A stretch of 64,000 nucleotides of DNA from Escherichia coli (GTDB lineage Bacteria; Pseudomonadota; Gammaproteobacteria; Enterobacterales; Enterobacteriaceae). Below are positions 10,596 to 21,386 of this stretch, piece after piece. The stretch is from NCBI RefSeq assembly GCF_001677475.2, contig NZ_CP015229.1, one strand, 5' to 3'. Under the pieces are notes generated by a model. That model had not been told where the DNA came from. It searched no databases and saw only the letters and a list, made by a program, of their open reading frames with translations. Each line of letters begins with the position of its first letter. The stretch's first letter is position 1. Position numbers and translations under genes: made by a program.

Positions 10596-11048
10596 TTAAT
10601 GCAGCCAATGAACGCCCTCGGCAGGCTGAAAGAACGCGTTATAGCGCATCTGAAAAGCATTAATATCCTGCATTTCAGGTTCGGTTTCGCGCAGAAAACC
10701 CAGCGCCAGCCTGACCTGAGCATCGGTAATCGGCGCGGCAAGGCGGGCTTTTTGTAAAATCCGATGCCATTGCAGCAGGTTCTGTTCGCTACCATCGACA
10801 ATGACAATTTGCCAGATGAGCAACACCTGCGCGGCGTTTTGCAGGTGCGACTCATCCGGGCGATGCAAATAACGTAAAAATTCGTCACCGGCTGACTTTC
10901 CCATTTGATCGACCATCGACTCCACGGGTACGACATCGATGTTCAGCCGATCGCTGAGACGGCGAATCGCTTTTCTGGCCCCGGATGTCAGCACCCGAAA
11001 ACCAATCACAAACACTACCGCCAGCGTGGCGAGCATTATCCAGATCAT
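10596..11048 (-). CDS. yicN: DUF1198-family small membrane-anchored protein YicN (copy 1)
   Basis: 150-aa product from MIWIMLATLAVVF; N-terminal TM helix; position between nepI and adeQ. Confidence 0.75.
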   Translation of the reverse strand: MIWIMLATLAVVFVIGFRVLTSGARKAIRRLSDRLNIDVVPVESMVDQMGKSAGDEFLRYLHRPDESHLQNAAQVLLIWQIVIVDGSEQNLLQWHRILQKARLAAPITDAQVRLALGFLRETEPEMQDINAFQMRYNAFFQPAEGVHWLH

Positions 11049-12609: not shown

Positions 12610-14376
12610 ATGAATAATTCTATTAACCATAAATTTCATCACATTAGCCGGGCTGAATACCAGGAATTGTTAGCCGTTTCCCGTGGCGACGCTGTTGCCG
12701 ATTATATTATTGATAATGTCTCTATTCTCGACCTGATCAATGGCGGAGAAATTTCCGGCCCAATTGTGATTAAAGGACGTTACATTGCCGGTGTTGGCGC
12801 AGAATACACTGATGCTCCGGCTTTGCAGCGGATTGATGCCCGCGGCGCAACGGCGGTGCCAGGGTTTATTGATGCTCACCTGCATATTGAATCCAGCATG
12901 ATGACGCCGGTCACCTTTGAAACCGCTACCCTGCCGCGCGGCCTGACGACCGTTATTTGCGACCCTCATGAAATCGTCAACGTGATGGGCGAAGCCGGAT
13001 TCGCCTGGTTTGCCCGCTGTGCCGAACAGGCAAGGCAAAACCAGTACTTACAGGTCAGCTCTTGCGTACCCGCCCTGGAAGGCTGCGATGTTAACGGTGC
13101 CAGTTTTACCCTTGAACAGATGCTCGCCTGGCGGGACCATCCGCAGGTTACCGGCCTTGCAGAAATGATGGACTACCCTGGCGTAATTAGCGGGCAGAAT
13201 GCGCTGCTCGATAAACTGGATGCATTTCGCCACCTGACGCTGGACGGTCACTGCCCGGGTTTGGGTGGTAAAGAACTTAACGCCTATATTGCTGCGGGTA
13301 TTGAAAACTGCCACGAAAGTTATCAGCTGGAAGAAGGACGCCGGAAATTACAACTCGGTATGTCGTTGATGATCCGCGAAGGGTCCGCTGCCCGCAATCT
13401 CAACGCTCTGGCACCGTTGATCAACGAATTTAACAGCCCGCAATGCATGCTCTGTACCGATGACCGTAACCCGTGGGAGATCGCCCATGAAGGACACATC
13501 GATGCCTTAATTCGCCGCCTGATCGAACAACACAATGTGCCGCTGCATGTGGCATATCGCGTCGCCAGCTGGTCGACGGCGCGCCATTTTGGTCTGAATC
13601 ACCTCGGCTTACTGGCACCCGGCAAGCAGGCCGATATCGTCCTGTTGAGCGATGCGCGTAAGGTCACGGTGCAGCAGGTACTGGTGAAAGGCGAGCCGAT
13701 TGATGCGCAAACCTTACAGGCGGAAGAGTCGGCGAGACTGGCACAATCCGCTCCGCCGTATGGCAATACCATTGCCCGCCAGCCCGTTTCCGCCAGCGAC
13801 TTTGCCCTGCAATTCACGCCCGGAAAACGCTATCGGGTCATTGACGTCATCCATAACGAATTGATTACGCACTCCCGCTCCAGCGTCTATAGCGAAAATG
13901 GTTTTGATCGCGATGATGTGTGCTTTATTGCCGTACTTGAGCGTTACGGGCAACGGCTGGCTCCGGCCTGTGGTTTGCTCGGCGGCTTTGGCCTGAATGA
14001 AGGTGCGCTGGCTGCGACGGTCAGCCATGACAGCCATAATATTGTGGTGATCGGTCGCAGTGCGGAAGAGATGGCGCTGGCGGTCAATCAGGTGATTCAG
14101 GATGGCGGCGGGCTGTGCGTGGTACGTAACGGCCAGGTACAAAGTCATCTGCCGTTACCAATTGCAGGGCTGATGAGCACCGACACGGCGCAGTCGCTGG
14201 CGGAGCAAATTGACGCCTTGAAAGCCGCCGCCCGTGAATGCGGTCCGTTACCCGATGAGCCGTTTATTCAGATGGCGTTTCTTTCCCTGCCAGTGATCCC
14301 CGCGCTGAAACTAACCAGCCAGGGGCTGTTTGATGGCGAGAAGTTTGCCTTCACCACGCTGGAAGTCACGGAATGA
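12610..14376 (+). CDS. adeD: Adenine deaminase
   Basis: 588-aa amidohydrolase with metal-binding HxH motif ([13 protein letters not shown]). Confidence 0.9.
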
Positions 14377-14568
14377 AAAAAAGACCGTATTAGCTGATTT
14401 ACGGAAAATATGTACTCCACAAGCGTCAATATCAGACGAGGCCTGGGAAAAGATGATGTTGTCTGATGAAAGTAATCAGCAGCACATCCGTGAGGCTATT
14501 GTGGCGATGGAACGCAATAACCAGAAAAATTACTGGGAAGCGTTAGGCAAGGTTGAATGCCCGGATAT

Positions 14569-14598
14569 GTAGACGTGAAGCCGCAGCTTCACGTCTAC
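14569..14598. terminator. Perfect 13-bp stem / 4-nt loop palindrome between convergent adeD-side and LacI-family genes
   Basis: gtagacgtgaagc-cgca-gcttcacgtctac; no strong U-tract, so terminator function is uncertain. Confidence 0.35.
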
Positions 14599-14607
14599 AT
14601 TTAGCAC

Positions 14608-15567
14608 TTAACGTGAACGTATATCGGGAATAATTAAATCACCACGCAGAACATATGAACCCAGCATCGTCTGTGTCTTCTCGTTAAGCCAACTGACTAT
14701 CCGGGCGGCCATTTCGTCCAGCGAATACTCTATCGCCGGAATGGTCGGTATCCCCGGAAGATGAACAGTACCCGCCAGACTAAATACCATAATGTCCTCA
14801 GGAACAGATTTATTAAACGCCTGCAATTGCGGTATCACCCGCTGCGCTTGCTGTTCATCAGCAACTAATAACGCATTAAAGTTCAGTGTTGAGGCGTTAT
14901 TTAGCAGCTCCTGCAAAGCCACTGAGGAAGATATTGCTTCCATAAAAACCAGATTACGGTTAAAGGGAAGAAAGTTTTTCTCCAGCGCGTGTTTATAGCC
15001 CAGTAAGACCTGGTCAGAAAATCCCATACCGTGTGGGTGGATGAGGGCGATTTGTCGTCTGTTCTGACTTATCAGATAGTTACAAGCGGTTTCAGTCGCG
15101 AATGTGTGATCGAACTGAATACTGTTAACATCATTACCCGTCTCAAGGCAGTCCACCAGTATCACGTTTTCCTGATGAATATTCAGTGGGAAACGCGCAC
15201 CAATAATCAGTACGTCATCACACAAACCACAGCTCAGCTCATCAAGGGCGTTCTTTACCTCGGCTTTATTGCTGGCGAAGCGAAGAAGTAGATGTTTTTG
15301 ATGCTGGCTGAGATGTTTTTCCAGAGCGTAAAGATAACCGGTGGTCTGATTAATGTTTTCCTGAGCACAAATTACACCGATACAGCCCGTAGATTGCGTC
15401 AGCAGTGACTGCGCAATGACATTGGGACGATAGTTTAGCTCTTCGACGGCTTTCAATACCGCGAGACGGCTGGCTTCTTTAACACCACGCGATCCGCTCA
15501 ACACCCGAGAAACCGTCGCTTTTGAAACGCCAGCCAAACGCGATACATCATTGATAGTAGACATCAT
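14608..15567 (-). CDS. LacI-family transcriptional regulator (probable repressor of the adjacent beta-glucoside PTS operon)
   Basis: N-terminal HTH MSTINDVSRLAGVSKATVSRVLSG; periplasmic-binding-protein-like effector domain; divergent from the PTS operon. Confidence 0.8.
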   Translation of the reverse strand: MMSTINDVSRLAGVSKATVSRVLSGSRGVKEASRLAVLKAVEELNYRPNVIAQSLLTQSTGCIGVICAQENINQTTGYLYALEKHLSQHQKHLLLRFASNKAEVKNALDELSCGLCDDVLIIGARFPLNIHQENVILVDCLETGNDVNSIQFDHTFATETACNYLISQNRRQIALIHPHGMGFSDQVLLGYKHALEKNFLPFNRNLVFMEAISSSVALQELLNNASTLNFNALLVADEQQAQRVIPQLQAFNKSVPEDIMVFSLAGTVHLPGIPTIPAIEYSLDEMAARIVSWLNEKTQTMLGSYVLRGDLIIPDIRSR

Positions 15568-15855
15568 TCTCCCCTGACAGAGCGGCCCTGGCTCCCACAA
15601 TCCTGAATTCCTGTTGGCTTAAATATTAGCCATTCGCAGTATAACTGTTTCCGTTTTTTAATGGAAACCGATTTTCCATGACACCTCAAAACTGAGCTAA
15701 TAATGATAAAGATGTGAACAGAATCGAAATATTAACGCGACTTTATAGCGAAATCGGATAGCCGTCACAGTTTGTGTTTCCATGAATGGAAACCGGTTTC
15801 CAAATGATATCAAATCAATTGCGAAATAGATTTTTACATTCAGAGGATGTGTCAG

Positions 15856-16170
15856 ATGGTCAGGATTATGTTGTGTTGCTCTGCGGGGATGTCAACCAGT
15901 CTGCTGGTGAAAAAAATGGTCGAGGCCGCAGAAAGCAGAGAGCTACCGGTAGAGATAGATGCCTACGGAGTTTCCGAATTTGATATTCAGTTTCCAAAAT
16001 ATCAGGTGGTGCTACTCGGACCGCAGGTAAAGTATATGTTAAACATGCTCGCAGAAAAGGCCGCCCCCCAGGGAATACCCGTAAAAGCCATTGATATGGC
16101 GGACTACGGAATGCAACGGGGTGACAAGGTGCTGGATTACGCTCTGTCGCTCATTGCAGCGACACATTAG
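15856..16170 (+). CDS. PTS EIIB component, lactose/cellobiose family
   Basis: MVRIMLCCSAGMSTSLLV with active-site Cys motif; GAGGA RBS about 8 nt upstream. Confidence 0.8.
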   Translation: MVRIMLCCSAGMSTSLLVKKMVEAAESRELPVEIDAYGVSEFDIQFPKYQVVLLGPQVKYMLNMLAEKAAPQGIPVKAIDMADYGMQRGDKVLDYALSLIAATH

Positions 16171-16182
16171 AAAGGTGTCATT

Positions 16183-17514
16183 ATGAGTTCGTTATATCAA
16201 TCAATGGTTGCCGTTATTGAACAATCCATCACACCGCTTGCCGGGAAGCTGGGGCAGCAAAAATATGTGATTGCCATCCGGGACGGTTTTACTGCCGCTC
16301 TACCGTTTATGATCATCGGTTCGTTTATGCTGGTGTTCATTTTCCCACCGTTTTCGGCTGAAACAACCAACAGTTTTGCCCGAGGCTGGCTGGATTTCTC
16401 CGCCACCTACCGTGAACAGCTAATGTTGCCATTTAACCTCAGTATGGGAGTGATGACTTTCTTCATCTCAGTAGGAATCGGTGCCAGCCTTGGGCGACAG
16501 TTTAATCTCGATCCGATTATGTCTGGCTTGCTGGCATTTATGGCATTTTTACTGGTCGCAGCGCCTTACGCTGACGGCAAGATATCGACTCAATATCTTT
16601 CCGGGCAAGGTATTTTCACGTCGCTGATTACTGCGATTTATGCCACTCGTGTGTACGCCTGGTTAAAACAACACAACGTGACAATCCGCTTACCCAAAGA
16701 AGTCCCTACTGGGGTGGCGCGTTCCTTTGAGATCCTTATCCCGGTTCTGGTGGTCATTGCTACGCTACACCCACTGAATCTGTTTATTGAGGCCCAGACT
16801 GGAATGATTATTCCTGAGGCGATCATGCATCTTTTAGCGCCACTGGTCTCTGCCTCTGATTCCCTGCCTGCAATTCTGCTGTCTGTTCTGATGTGTCAGA
16901 TTTTCTGGTTCGCAGGTATTCATGGTTCACTGATTGTAACCGGCATCATGAATCCCTTCTGGATGGCAAACCTGTCGGCAAATCAGGCAGCTCTTGCCGC
17001 TGGCGCAGCACTTCCTCACGTTTATCTGCAAGGTTTTTGGGATCACTACCTGCTGATTGGTGGTGTCGGCTCGACGCTACCGCTGGCGTTCTTGCTGTTA
17101 CGCAGTCGCGTTGCTCACTTGCGCACCATCGGAAAAATGGGCGTTGTCCCCAGTTTTTTCAACATTAATGAGCCTATTCTGTTCGGTGCGCCGATCATCA
17201 TGAATCCGATGTTGTTTATCCCGTTCGTTTTCGTGCCAATTATTAACGCCATCCTGGCCTATACCGCGACCAGACTGGGCTGGCTGGCACAGGTTGTCTC
17301 ATTAACGCCATGGACCACACCTGCTCCAATTGGTGCCTCCTGGGCTGCCAACTGGGCACTTAGCCCGGTAGTGATGTGCATTATCTGTATGGTGATGTCG
17401 GCGCTGATGTACCTCCCATTCTTGCGCGCCTATGAACGCTCATTGCTAAAAAGCGAAGAACAAAAAGCGCAGGATACCGTCTCCGTGGCCAATGCAGCCC
17501 GTAGCAACTCATAA
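16183..17514 (+). CDS. PTS EIIC component, lactose/cellobiose family
   Basis: 443-aa polytopic membrane protein directly following EIIB. Confidence 0.8.
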   Translation: MSSLYQSMVAVIEQSITPLAGKLGQQKYVIAIRDGFTAALPFMIIGSFMLVFIFPPFSAETTNSFARGWLDFSATYREQLMLPFNLSMGVMTFFISVGIGASLGRQFNLDPIMSGLLAFMAFLLVAAPYADGKISTQYLSGQGIFTSLITAIYATRVYAWLKQHNVTIRLPKEVPTGVARSFEILIPVLVVIATLHPLNLFIEAQTGMIIPEAIMHLLAPLVSASDSLPAILLSVLMCQIFWFAGIHGSLIVTGIMNPFWMANLSANQAALAAGAALPHVYLQGFWDHYLLIGGVGSTLPLAFLLLRSRVAHLRTIGKMGVVPSFFNINEPILFGAPIIMNPMLFIPFVFVPIINAILAYTATRLGWLAQVVSLTPWTTPAPIGASWAANWALSPVVMCIICMVMSALMYLPFLRAYERSLLKSEEQKAQDTVSVANAARSNS

Positions 17515-17534
17515 TGAATCAAGGAGTAAGAACA

Positions 17535-18932
17535 ATGAGATACCGTTTTCCCGACAACTTCTGGTGGGGTAGTGCCTGCTCTGCGCTGCAAACCGAAGGG
17601 GATAGTCTGAACGGCGGCAAAAGCCAAACCACCTGGGATGTATGGTTCGAGCGCCAGCCAGGCCGCTTCCATCAAGGTATTGGCCCGGCGAACACATCAA
17701 CCTTTTATCAACACTGGCAACAAGATATTGCCCTGCTGAAACAGTTAAAACATAACAGTTTTCGCACCTCGTTAAGCTGGTCTCGCCTGATACCAGACGG
17801 TACTGGTGACGTAAATCCTGAAGCGGTGGCGTTCTATAACAATGTCATCGACGAGCTGCTGGCGCAGGGCATCACACCGTTTATCACCTTGTTCCACTTT
17901 GATATGCCGATGGTGATGCAGGAAAAAGGTGGCTGGGAGAGTCGTGAAGTCGTAGAAGCTTTTGGTGAATATGCCCGTACCTGCTTTGAACTGTTCGGCA
18001 ACAGAGTGAAGCACTGGTTTACCTTTAACGAACCGATTGTGCCGGTAGAGGGCGGTTATTTATATGACTTCCACTATCCGAACGTTGTTGATTTTAAACG
18101 TGCTGCGACAGTGGCTTACCATACCGTTCTTGCGCACGCCACGGCAGTTCGGGCATTTCGCCGCGGTAATTTCGAAGGTGAAATTGGCGTGGTGCTCAAC
18201 CTGACGCCTTCTTATCCGCGCTCGCAAAATCCGGCTGATGTTAAAGCCGCACACTGCGCTGACCTTCTGTTTAACCGCAGCTTCCTCGATCCGGTGCTAA
18301 AAGGAGAATACCCGGCAGACCTTGTAGCATTACTGAAAGAGTACGATCAGTTGCCGCAATGCCAGCCTGACGATAGTCAGCTAATCGCCGACGGAAAAAT
18401 CGACCTGCTGGGGATAAATTATTATCAACCCCGTCGAGTTAAATGCCGGGATAGCGCCGTAAACCCCAATGCTCCCTTTATGCCGGAGTGGTTATTTGAC
18501 TATTACGAGATGCCTGGGCGAAAAATGAATCCTTATCGGGGATGGGAAATTTATGAACCCGGTATTTACGATATCATCACCAATCTTCGCGATAATTATG
18601 GTAATCCTCGTTGTTTTATTTCTGAAAATGGGATGGGTGTAGAAAACGAGCAACGTTTTATTCAGGAAGGGCAAGTCAACGATAGCTATCGTATTGAATT
18701 TGTCGCTGAACATTTAAAATGGCTGCATAAAGGAATTAGCGAAGGGTGTAATTGCCTTGGCTATCATATGTGGACGTTTATCGATAACTGGTCATGGCTT
18801 AATGCTTATAAAAATCGCTATGGATTTGTTCAGCTTGATCTGGAAACGCAAACACGCACGATTAAAAAAAGTGGTGAGTGGTTTGCGACAGTTGCAGAAA
18901 ATAACGGTTTTGATTGCGAGAAACAAAAATGA
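17535..18932 (+). CDS. 6-phospho-beta-glucosidase (glycoside hydrolase family 1)
   Basis: FPDNFWWGSACSALQTEGD, TFNEP and ENG motifs typical of GH1; AAGGAG RBS 8 nt upstream of ATG at 17535. Confidence 0.85.
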   Translation: MRYRFPDNFWWGSACSALQTEGDSLNGGKSQTTWDVWFERQPGRFHQGIGPANTSTFYQHWQQDIALLKQLKHNSFRTSLSWSRLIPDGTGDVNPEAVAFYNNVIDELLAQGITPFITLFHFDMPMVMQEKGGWESREVVEAFGEYARTCFELFGNRVKHWFTFNEPIVPVEGGYLYDFHYPNVVDFKRAATVAYHTVLAHATAVRAFRRGNFEGEIGVVLNLTPSYPRSQNPADVKAAHCADLLFNRSFLDPVLKGEYPADLVALLKEYDQLPQCQPDDSQLIADGKIDLLGINYYQPRRVKCRDSAVNPNAPFMPEWLFDYYEMPGRKMNPYRGWEIYEPGIYDIITNLRDNYGNPRCFISENGMGVENEQRFIQEGQVNDSYRIEFVAEHLKWLHKGISEGCNCLGYHMWTFIDNWSWLNAYKNRYGFVQLDLETQTRTIKKSGEWFATVAENNGFDCEKQK

Positions 18933-19231
18933 TCGAACTAGAAGATGCTGTTATGGAAATAATCGTCAATGCCGGCCAGTCACGCAGCCTCTGTTTTGAA
19001 GCGTTACACGCGGCACGTGCCGGGAACTTTGATGAAGCCAAACAGCTGCTACATGAAGCTGACGGTTATTCGCGTCAGGCTCACCATATGCAAACCAAAT
19101 TGATCGAACAGGATGCTGGTGAGGCCCGTCAGCCAATGACATTAATTATGGTACATGCACAGGATCATTTAATGACATCGATGCTGGCACGAGAATTAGC
19201 AGAAGAAATAATTCATCTTTATCAAAGATAA
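18929..19231 (+). CDS. PTS EIIA component, lactose/cellobiose family
   Basis: ~100-aa helical protein; ATGA start/stop overlap with the GH1 gene. Confidence 0.7.
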   Translation: MIELEDAVMEIIVNAGQSRSLCFEALHAARAGNFDEAKQLLHEADGYSRQAHHMQTKLIEQDAGEARQPMTLIMVHAQDHLMTSMLARELAEEIIHLYQR

Positions 19232-19432
19232 TTAATTAATGCTTAGTGAGGAACATCTATTTGATAAAATAAAACCCCTGCTTTACCCAAGAATAAAATA
19301 GATAAACCACCCTGTTTCGGCAGTTAAAAACAAACCGAAACAGGCTGCTTATTATCATAAAACAAATTAATACACACCTTATATTTATTATGCCTAACGC
19401 ATAATGAATTATAACGTGTGCGTGAGATAATT

Positions 19433-20812
19433 ATGAAAAAGATAAATACACTTCCAGTTACCCTAGCGGTTATTGCCGCTTTGTACTCAATATCTGCCCA
19501 AGCTCAGGAATTTACTCAGGAACAAATAGACGCCATTGTGGCAAAAGCCGTCGATAAAGCATTAGCCGAAAGGCAAGAAAAAATGGATGCCGCGGCAGCG
19601 AAAAAAGTGGATGTTATTAACGAACCGGAAAGTGCTGCGCAGTCTCCGGATATGGCAATTCCCTTTGGCGTAAAATTTAGTGGTTATGCCCGTTATGGGG
19701 CTCACTTTCAAAGCGGCGATCAAAAATATGTTGCTGTAGACGGCTCCTATAATGGTGCATCTGCAATTGGTCGTCTGGGGAACGAAGGTAACGGCGGAGA
19801 GTTTCAGTTATCAAAAGCCTTCAAGAGCGATAACGGCGCAATCTGGGATGTCAATGTCATGATTGATCACTGGGGCGACGAAGTTAACCTGAAAAAAGCC
19901 TACGCTGGTGTCACCAATGTTTTGGCATCCAATCCTGACGCCTATATCTGGGCTGGTCGTGACTTCCACCAGCGCCCGCAACAGGGCATTAATGACTACT
20001 TCTGGATGACTCACGATGGTCAGGGTGCCGGGGTGAAAAATTTCGACATTGGTGGCATCAAGTTTGACCTTGCTACTGTCGCAGCGGTTGAATCCTGTAA
20101 TCCTGAAGTGATGGAGGATGAGACCAATCCGTCACGCATTACCTGTACTGGCGGGTCAGGAACGGGCGACAAAGGCAATTATGCGGTAACGTCCAAAATC
20201 CATGGTATGAAACTGGGGCCACTGGATCTTGAGTTGTACGCTAACTACGGCTTCGACTCAAAAGCGGTCGAAGGTGAAGACAAACTGAAAGCCTGGCAGG
20301 GGGCATTTGTTGTAAGCCATAGCAATGACAGCGGAGTGAATAAAGTCATTGCCCGCTACTCTGATAATTCCGATAACAGTGTTTACAATAAAACTGACGA
20401 TCTCACGACAATTTACGCCAGTTTTGAAGGTAGTCATAAATTTACCCAGCAGGCGCAAATCGAGTATTTACTGGCCTTCCATGATTACGACAACAGTTCT
20501 ATTAAGAGTGATAACCGCAAAAACTATGGCGTAATTGTCCGTCCTATGTATTTCTGGAATGACGTTCACTCCACCTGGCTTGAGGCGGGTTATCAACGGG
20601 TTGATTATGATAAAGGCGGAGATAATTCCGGCTGGAAGCTGACGCTGTCACAGAACATTTCTATTGCGATGGGCCCGGAATTCCGCCCAATGCTACGTTT
20701 CTACATGACGGGCGGGCAAGTTGATAATGACCGGACTGCACGCGTCAACGGTACAAAAGAGGAAACGCTTGACGACTTTAACCTTGGCGCGATGTGGGAA
20801 GCCTGGTTCTGA
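19433..20812 (+). CDS. Carbohydrate-specific outer-membrane porin (LamB/BglH-like)
   Basis: Signal peptide MKKINTLPVTLAVIAALYSISAQA; beta-barrel-like sequence ending in aromatic WEAWF. Confidence 0.7.
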   Translation: MKKINTLPVTLAVIAALYSISAQAQEFTQEQIDAIVAKAVDKALAERQEKMDAAAAKKVDVINEPESAAQSPDMAIPFGVKFSGYARYGAHFQSGDQKYVAVDGSYNGASAIGRLGNEGNGGEFQLSKAFKSDNGAIWDVNVMIDHWGDEVNLKKAYAGVTNVLASNPDAYIWAGRDFHQRPQQGINDYFWMTHDGQGAGVKNFDIGGIKFDLATVAAVESCNPEVMEDETNPSRITCTGGSGTGDKGNYAVTSKIHGMKLGPLDLELYANYGFDSKAVEGEDKLKAWQGAFVVSHSNDSGVNKVIARYSDNSDNSVYNKTDDLTTIYASFEGSHKFTQQAQIEYLLAFHDYDNSSIKSDNRKNYGVIVRPMYFWNDVHSTWLEAGYQRVDYDKGGDNSGWKLTLSQNISIAMGPEFRPMLRFYMTGGQVDNDRTARVNGTKEETLDDFNLGAMWEAWF

Positions 20813-20830
20813 CAGGCCACTCACATTGAG

Positions 20831-21283
20831 TTAATGCAACCAAAACACGCCTTCTTCTGGCTGGAAGAGGGCGTTATAGCGCATTTGGAAGGCATTAATC
20901 TCCTGCATATCTGGCTCTAACTCACGGAGAAAACCCAGCGCCAGACGGACCTGGGCATCAGTGATCGGCGCAGCAAGACGCGCTTTTTGCAACAACCGAT
21001 GCCAACGTAACAGGTTCTGCTCACTACCATCGACAATCACAATTTGCCAGATAAGTAACACCTGAGCAGCATTTTGCAGATGAGATTCATCCGGGCGATG
21101 CAAATAATACAAAAACTCTTTACCAGGCATTTTACCCATCTGATCGATCATCGATTCTACGGGTACAACATCAATATTAAGTCGTTCGCTTAAACGGCGA
21201 ATCGCCCGTCGGGTGCCTGACGTCAGAACCCGAAAACCAACCACAAACACCACCACGACGGTGGCAAGCATTATCCAGATCAT
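20831..21283 (-). CDS. DUF1198-family protein, second yicN paralogue (copy 2)
   Basis: 150 aa, roughly 85-90% identical by eye to copy 1 at 10596..11048 (about 19 substitutions); similarity extends into the flanks. Confidence 0.75.
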   Translation of the reverse strand: MIWIMLATVVVVFVVGFRVLTSGTRRAIRRLSERLNIDVVPVESMIDQMGKMPGKEFLYYLHRPDESHLQNAAQVLLIWQIVIVDGSEQNLLRWHRLLQKARLAAPITDAQVRLALGFLRELEPDMQEINAFQMRYNALFQPEEGVFWLH

Positions 21284-21355
21284 GCGTTCTCCTGCGCATC
21301 AACTTTTGATGATATCTGGAAAACTCCCCCAGGCGTTAATCTGGTCAAATTGAAT

Positions 21356-21386
21356 AAAAAAAGCCCGGCGTCATGCCGGGCAAAAG
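21356..21386 (-). terminator. Rho-independent terminator downstream of uhpT
   Basis: Hairpin gcccggcatgacgccgggc followed by a T-run on the minus strand. Confidence 0.6.

Follow-up and report, generated by a model that had tools for sequence, protein, structure and literature searches.

The closest described relative of the locus presented here is yicS of E. coli K-12 (b4555), a member of the family NF041639 / PF27428 that is complete in K-12, with 97 codons and a signal peptide, and lies between nlpA and nepI. The functional information on YicS that we found in the literature is limited. One paper describes yicS as AggR-regulated in EAEC 042 and, citing Verma et al. 2018, as implicated in biofilm formation and in the virulence of avian-pathogenic E. 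coli (PMC6392122). When YicS proteins of Escherichia, Citrobacter, Lelliottia, Leclercia, Huaxiibacter and Enterobacter are aligned, they have an N-terminal signal-peptide-like segment in common and share a conserved ...AWEKMM... motif, and two cysteines (Cys45 and Cys94 in the 97-aa numbering) are invariant in 12 homologues from at least six genera. In E. fergusonii, the species to which CP079884 (PMC9204285) and CP042945 (PMC10740950) belong, yicS encodes the full-length protein P0002 and stands in the order yicL-yicS-lacI-IIB-IIC-GH1-IIA-porin-yicN-adeD. The divergent Escherichia L012 has the order yicS-island-yicN-adeQ-adeD-uhpT and Citrobacter sedlakii the order yicS-island-nepI-yicN, and the adjacency of yicS and lacI is also found in Citrobacter, Lelliottia, Leclercia, Huaxiibacter and Enterobacter, so that it is widespread among other Enterobacteriaceae. 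This native order in relatives implies that the segment belongs between yicS and nepI/yicN, the position from which it is missing in K-12. In the E. fergusonii loci (L004-L011, positions 15007-15291) adeQ is missing between yicN and adeD, where a 285-bp spacer holds a degenerate adeQ 3' remnant.

Here we characterize a fragment of this gene in a stretch of 64,000 nucleotides from an E. coli chromosome (contig NZ_CP015229.1 of assembly GCF_001677475.2), which we call the window. The original prediction had described a 39-codon ORF behind a weak ribosome binding site, followed by a perfect 13-bp palindrome, at the junction between adeD and a PTS island. This setting is borne out by a 98.5%-identical genome, in which RefSeq annotates adeD on one side and the PTS island on the other. 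The genome in question, 19KM1831, is the closest complete E. coli genome (98.5% identity over 12.6 kb), and it annotates the adenine deaminase gene adeD, which in the window is a 588-aa ORF at 12610..14376 on the plus strand. The ORF itself (14453..14572, plus strand) also reads as predicted, with 39 sense codons between the ATG at 14453-14455 and the TAG at 14570-14572 and exactly the peptide that had been quoted. The ribosome binding site is indeed weak, as GGGA at 14445-14448 is all that is on offer upstream of ATG14453; it sits 4 nt upstream of this ATG and 7 nt upstream of ATG14456. The surrounding 6 kb contain 63 ORFs of at least 25 aa, and the 39-codon ORF on its own is not significant.

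What the ORF belongs to is a truncated gene. It runs from the internal Met60 of YicS, the Met60 of the AWEKMM motif, to Met97, and it is the 3' part of a 5'-truncated YicS-family relic at 14375..14572 (plus strand) that comprises codons E33-M97 of a 97-codon gene and its TAG stop. The translation of 14366-14569 matches the NCBIfam profile NF041639 (YicS family) with 100.7 bits (E=3.8e-29) over profile positions 31-96 of 96, and the 39-aa ORF by itself scores 58.5 bits over positions 58-96; both exceed the curated family cut-off of 45 bits. In a database search the relic was 96% identical to the full-length 97-aa YicS P0002, and all matches of this search carry the PF27428 label. A Pfam scan of the fragment gave no match in the Pfam copy used, and we assign the family from the NCBIfam match together with these precomputed labels. 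Compared with K-12 yicS, the relic DNA is 81% identical over 14378-14571, and its protein is 87% identical to E. coli YicS sequences such as P0019. The window copy differs from the K-12 gene in that it is without codons 1-32, lies after adeD and is nearer to the E. fergusonii allele (96%).

The relic lacks the start codon, the ribosome binding site, the signal peptide (residues 1-21, MKPTMLLLITAFFILPGLALA) and 11 mature residues. Hence, while it passes the family score, it falls short of a complete member, which would have roughly 97 aa and start with a Sec-type signal peptide, since residues 1-32 are gone. For these reasons (completeness, signal peptide and start codon) it is a YicS-family pseudogene fragment and not a functional member. 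RefSeq/PGAP lists the site in 19KM1831, between adeD and the LacI-family regulator, as 'YicS family protein, incomplete, missing N-terminus', and a PGAP pseudogene call stands at the same site in all ten carriers fetched (19KM1831 and nine others). Upstream, the relic frame continues without a stop as far as 14330 and overlaps the 3' end of adeD; compared with adeD, ATG14453 is in the +1 frame. We rejected, on the sequence, a frameshift that would fuse adeD to the relic, because the adeD TGA precedes the A-run and GAA-UGA offers no slippery re-pairing.

A search within the window by tblastn yielded no second YicS copy, and an ORF at 6073-6369 that was checked as a resident yicS is not yicS. 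The resident gene lies outside the window: where K-12 has nlpA-yicS, the window has iatC (the name used in the 19KM1831 annotation), a very large inverse autotransporter gene from 1 to about 8200 on the minus strand that abuts nepI. Between nepI and yicN, the same annotation places a RelE/ParE-family toxin gene and a DNA-binding antitoxin-like gene (9814-10173 and 10157-10480, plus strand), a pair (9814-10480) that is not in the K-12 layout.

The idea that the ORF encodes a junction-associated small protein, independently translated, did not hold up, and we consider it extremely unlikely. The window and four of the other aligned carriers keep its frame intact, the weak GGGA precedes two ATGs, read-through from adeD could supply an mRNA, and gene callers in automated pipelines have predicted 'proteins' from the relic, namely P0090 (39 aa) and P0091 (59 aa). 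However, such a product would amount to Met60-Met97 of a secreted 97-aa protein, deprived of its signal peptide and of one of its two invariant cysteines: the 39-codon ORF retains Cys94 but not its partner Cys45, and the longer relic frame, which retains both, has no start codon. The bases that resemble a Shine-Dalgarno sequence are present because they encode the conserved W-E-K of YicS, and a promoter scan of the plus strand upstream of the ORF returned no promoter-like site. The comparison of carriers is also unfavorable. When the 198-bp relic is aligned across 11 carriers and the changes are polarised by E. fergusonii and L012, ATG14453 has changed to ATA in six, two have a 1-bp deletion in the A-run, one has a 7-bp deletion, and in one an additional T abolishes the stop codon, a variant that corresponds to P0091. 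The point changes comprise five replacements and a single silent change, whereas the intact yicS genes of E. fergusonii and L012 differ in one residue over the same 65 codons. Neither the start nor the frame of the ORF is thus conserved among carriers, as would be expected of a functional small ORF, and the pattern of changes in the alignment is that of an unconstrained pseudogene in neutral decay. Ribosomes may still start at a low level at ATG14453 or ATG14456 when adeD mRNA reads through. As a matter of annotation hygiene, the ORF should not be listed as a new small protein.

The point at which the relic begins was located by comparing the window with island-free E. coli genomes (a K-12 derivative, 042, AF39 and TUM14771). 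In these, the spacer between adeD and uhpT reads ...GTCACGGAAT AAT AAAAAAA(A)G CCCGGCGTCATGCCGGGC..., and the window reads ...GTCACGGAAT[G14375 AAAAAAAGACCG ... GGTCAAATTG21352]AATAAAAAAAGCCCGGC... across the insertion. Written around the joint, the empty sites have ACGGAAT^AATAAAAAAAGCCCGG and the window has ACGGAAT[G14375...G21352]AATAAAAAAAGCCC, so that 6,978 bp (14375..21352) sit exactly between GGAAT and AATAAAAAAAG, with zero recipient bases lost. The left crossover falls in an AAT microhomology (14372..14374), with ACGGAAT^AAT... in the recipient and GCAAAT^GAAAAAAAG in donor yicS, which reads GCAAATGAAAAAAAGACC at this joint. G14371 is the final recipient-only base and G14375 the first donor-only base, and an A7G run stands beside the crossover in both partners. 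As a consequence, the end of adeD has changed from GAA TAA TAA AAA AAG CCC in island-free genomes to GAA TGA AAA AAA GAC in the window, and its stop codon (14374-14376) is chimeric: the shared AAT supplies the T, and the yicS codon GAA of the donor contributes the GA. On the far side, the recipient sequence resumes at 21353..21381 with the AAT, the A7 run and the hairpin GCCCGGC-GTCAT-GCCGGGC (21363-21381). This hairpin, which is intact, is the intrinsic terminator of uhpT (minus strand), as its U7 tail lies on the strand of uhpT; where E. coli has no island, it starts 10 nt past the adeD stop.

These joints also bear on the suggestion that the palindrome at the end of the relic might mark the edge of the island, be it as an attachment site, as a hotspot of recombination or as a scar left by the insertion. 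It lies less than 200 bp from the junction, and its perfect arms are unusually long. Similarity to island-free genomes, however, stops at 14374/14375, which is 192 bp upstream of the hairpin; the hairpin is therefore inside the island and not its boundary. Moreover, the same hairpin follows the intact native yicS in E. fergusonii, L012, Citrobacter and Lelliottia, a second copy of it is absent from the window, and the island bears no integrase or mobility gene. By the empty-site and donor sequence comparisons this reading is refuted already, and we put its probability at virtually nil. The two ends of the island (14383-14392 and, in reverse complement, 21334-21343; GACCGTATTA / GACCAGATTA) agree as inverted sequences in 8 of 10 bases, which is probably chance, and there is no transposase.

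The island carries the yicS relic, a lacI-family regulator (14608..15564, minus strand, convergent with the relic), PTS IIB, PTS IIC, a GH1 glycosidase, PTS IIA, a LamB-type porin and, at its right end, a second copy of yicN (DUF1198; 20831..21283, minus strand), which is about 81% identical in DNA to the resident copy at 10596-11048 (minus strand). No integrase, recombinase, tRNA target or other mobility gene was found in it. A literature search on an island between adeD and uhpT found nothing. Most of the segment (14372-21323, 6.95 kb) is 98.2-98.4% identical to the E. fergusonii loci L004 and L007, compared with 91.4-91.8% for adeD, and both flanks are E. coli-like up to the joints (98.07% to K-12). 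The locus shares with native E. fergusonii the gene order, the orientation and the core of the hairpin after yicS; it differs in that E. fergusonii has yicS intact and the segment in the syntenic yicL...yicN position. Given the missing mobility gene and flanks that are E. coli-like right up to the joints, we infer an illegitimate, microhomology-assisted integration.

The last 29 bp of the island (21324..21352, CTCCCCCAGGCGTTAATCTGGTCAAATTG) have no E. fergusonii match. By blast they matched none of the loci fetched, including eight of E. fergusonii. An exact-protein look-up of the island yicN returned the same E. coli context alone, and an exact 23-mer scan of metagenome contigs gave one contig with the identical E. 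coli junction, so that no donor of these 29 bp was found. By eye, the 29 bp look like a diverged yicN-adeQ spacer with the final adeQ codons.

Among 5,426 complete E. coli genomes, the left junction occurs in about 25, identical in all carriers, and the right junction in 26, and 5,384 have the empty site. In strain 14EC033 (L107, NZ_CP024147), an IS1 in the region 6402-9613 is flanked by tnaA and the island porin gene, both truncated, and an IS1-associated deletion apparently took everything that had lain between these two genes, including adeD, the yicS relic and the island PTS genes. One might ask whether the island is ancestral at adeD in E. coli and has been deleted from most strains, as the carriers are 1-4% divergent in the region and come from varied hosts, and the flanking A7G runs could mediate a deletion. 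An ancestral island would nevertheless have to be reconciled with its 98.3% identity to E. fergusonii against about 91.5% for the flanks, and with a non-syntenic position, given that other Escherichia and Citrobacter place the segment between yicS and nepI/yicN. In addition, yicS is truncated here, although 19KM1831 has a second yicS-like match elsewhere in its chromosome, yicN is present in two copies, and the overwhelming number of genomes have the empty site. We therefore regard an ancestral island as very unlikely, and prefer acquisition from an E. fergusonii-like source.

The hairpin lies where it had been predicted (14569-14598, GTAGACGTGAAGC-CGCA-GCTTCACGTCTAC), but its perfect arms are 15 nt long and not 13: the stem spans 14567..14600, with arms at 14567-14581 and 14586-14600 around a 4-nt loop. 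It includes the last sense codon of the relic and the TAG stop, and ends 7 nt from the stop codon (14608-14610) of the convergent LacI-family gene. As RNA it folds with -24.3 kcal/mol (z = -6.7 against dinucleotide shuffles), and the opposite strand is equally stable. A perfect repeat of 15-nt arms is not expected by chance in 64 kb, and no further copy of the arm was found within the window. At the orthologous site, a hairpin with the core GCGTGAAGC...GCTTCACGC (GACGTGAAGC...GCTTCACGTC in Escherichia) stands directly 3' of the yicS stop in E. fergusonii, L012, three Citrobacter, three Lelliottia, Huaxiibacter, RIT714 and one metagenome-assembled genome. In 13 aligned sequences from at least six genera, 94.6% of the cells in the 10-bp core form pairs, versus 25-52% in slid controls. 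Two of the 10 pairs are altered on both sides (A-U to G-C and G-C to A-U), and the loops differ in sequence and length between genera. This covariation is supportive, not strong, as it reflects essentially one lineage split, Escherichia against the rest. K-12 yicS is without this hairpin, and DNA similarity to it ends at the stop codon. At the position after yicS, Leclercia has a different canonical terminator, and in Enterobacter spp. (L019-L030) a REP-like palindrome, GCCGGGTGGCG...CGCTTACCCGGC, replaces the hairpin about 20-60 nt past the yicS stop.

The other reading offered in the original prediction, a terminator region only, is essentially right. Like an intrinsic terminator, the locus has a stable G+C-containing stem-loop at a stop codon (overlapping the TAG of the relic), the hairpin at the yicS stop is conserved in Enterobacteriaceae, and a T-run follows it in several genera, with six to eight T in Lelliottia and RIT714 and a U-rich tract also in L033. 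In the window, however, a U-tract follows the stem on neither strand (tails AUUUAGCAC on the plus and AUAUCCGGG on the minus strand), a terminator consensus scan did not call the hairpin on either strand, and an Rfam scan of 14200-14800 at E<=1 matched no family. The stem is the conserved yicS terminator stem of Enterobacteriaceae, with a T-run that is degenerate in Escherichia. Its length differs between species and carriers: E. fergusonii and L012 read GTCACAC and form a stem of 10 bp (-17.5 kcal/mol), in six E. coli carriers the sequence is GTCATAC and the stem is bulged, with 10+5 bp (-20.5 kcal/mol), and the window with four other carriers (five of 11) has GTC-TAC and 15 perfect pairs (-24.3 kcal/mol). 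Read along this series, the perfect 15-bp stem is a derived state that arose by a 1-bp deletion in part of the E. coli carriers.

The varying loops also speak to the question of whether the palindrome might act as DNA that a protein binds, such as an operator for the LacI-family regulator next to it, and not as an RNA structure. It is perfect, it lies beside a LacI-family gene, and it has TGAA...TTCA half-sites. Yet the loop varies while compensatory changes keep the pairing, which points to a structure and not to a fixed DNA motif. The location, at the 3' ends of two convergent genes and not at a promoter, also speaks against an operator, and unrelated hairpins occupy the equivalent place in Enterobacter and Leclercia. 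The palindromes of LacI type in the island are different ones, and both are in the divergent promoter region. We noted a perfect 16-bp palindrome, TGGAAACCGGTTTCCA (15787-15802), and a near-copy, TGGAAACCGATTTTCCA (15662-15678), in the spacer that separates the divergent lacI-family and PTS IIB genes, and these two are probably operators of the island regulator. The hairpin, GTGAAGC...GCTTCAC, is unrelated to either of them. An operator role is scarcely credible on these grounds.

Taken as a whole, the ORF and the hairpin are very probably the 3' end of yicS and its own terminator stem, brought in together with foreign DNA. In the native layout, as in E. fergusonii, another Escherichia and Citrobacter, a yicS of 97 aa, apparently secreted, is followed by the hairpin and faces a convergent lacI-family regulator, with the PTS/beta-glucosidase/porin operon and yicN beyond. 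A piece of about 7 kb of an E. fergusonii-like chromosome, which begins with yicS codon 33 and stops about 70 bp upstream of yicN, entered a minority lineage of E. coli, landing between the adeD stop and the A-tract of the uhpT terminator. Judged from the junction sequence, the left joint would have formed by illegitimate recombination through the 3-nt AAT by the A7G run; the insertion turned the adeD stop TAA into the chimeric TGA and kept all recipient bases. The relic would since have been transcribed solely by adeD read-through, presumably with no productive translation, and the hairpin would be a former yicS terminator whose T-run was lost in Escherichia. After the insertion, transcripts of adeD would cross 190 nt of yicS relic before reaching this hairpin, in place of the uhpT terminator. 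Its present role is probably to pause transcription, to terminate it in part, or to stabilise the 3' ends of the read-through adeD and lacI-family mRNAs. A further step, that the relic hairpin has been co-opted as a 3'-end-forming or insulating element for adeD that shields the lacI-family gene from antisense read-through, and that the stem-perfecting 1-bp deletion was selected and did not spread by drift, seems to us unlikely, if conceivable.

In conclusion, the feature is ordinary and of known kinds, and RefSeq had annotated the relic beforehand. Its value lies in what it marks: the relic points to an E. fergusonii-like donor and pins the left breakpoint of the beta-glucoside-type PTS island to the base. 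It is an example of an exact, integrase-free insertion at an A-rich microhomology in which the stop codon of adeD was rebuilt, which will not surprise a specialist. With Rho-independent terminators between convergent genes the hairpin shares a stable stem-loop at the stop, a convergent spacer of 35 bp and conserved pairing, but the stem in the window has no U-tract on either strand and fails the consensus scan; at 15 bp and -24.3 kcal/mol it exceeds the stem of E. fergusonii with its 10 bp and -17.5 kcal/mol. With gene relics at the borders of acquired islands the locus shares a truncated donor gene that abuts an intact recipient gene at a 3-nt microhomology, and there is no integrase, tRNA or att site. 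It differs from them in that the insertion is exact, without recipient loss and with the adeD stop recreated, and in that the donor segment is homologous to a region that is missing from the recipient chromosome at a place 5.5 kb away.
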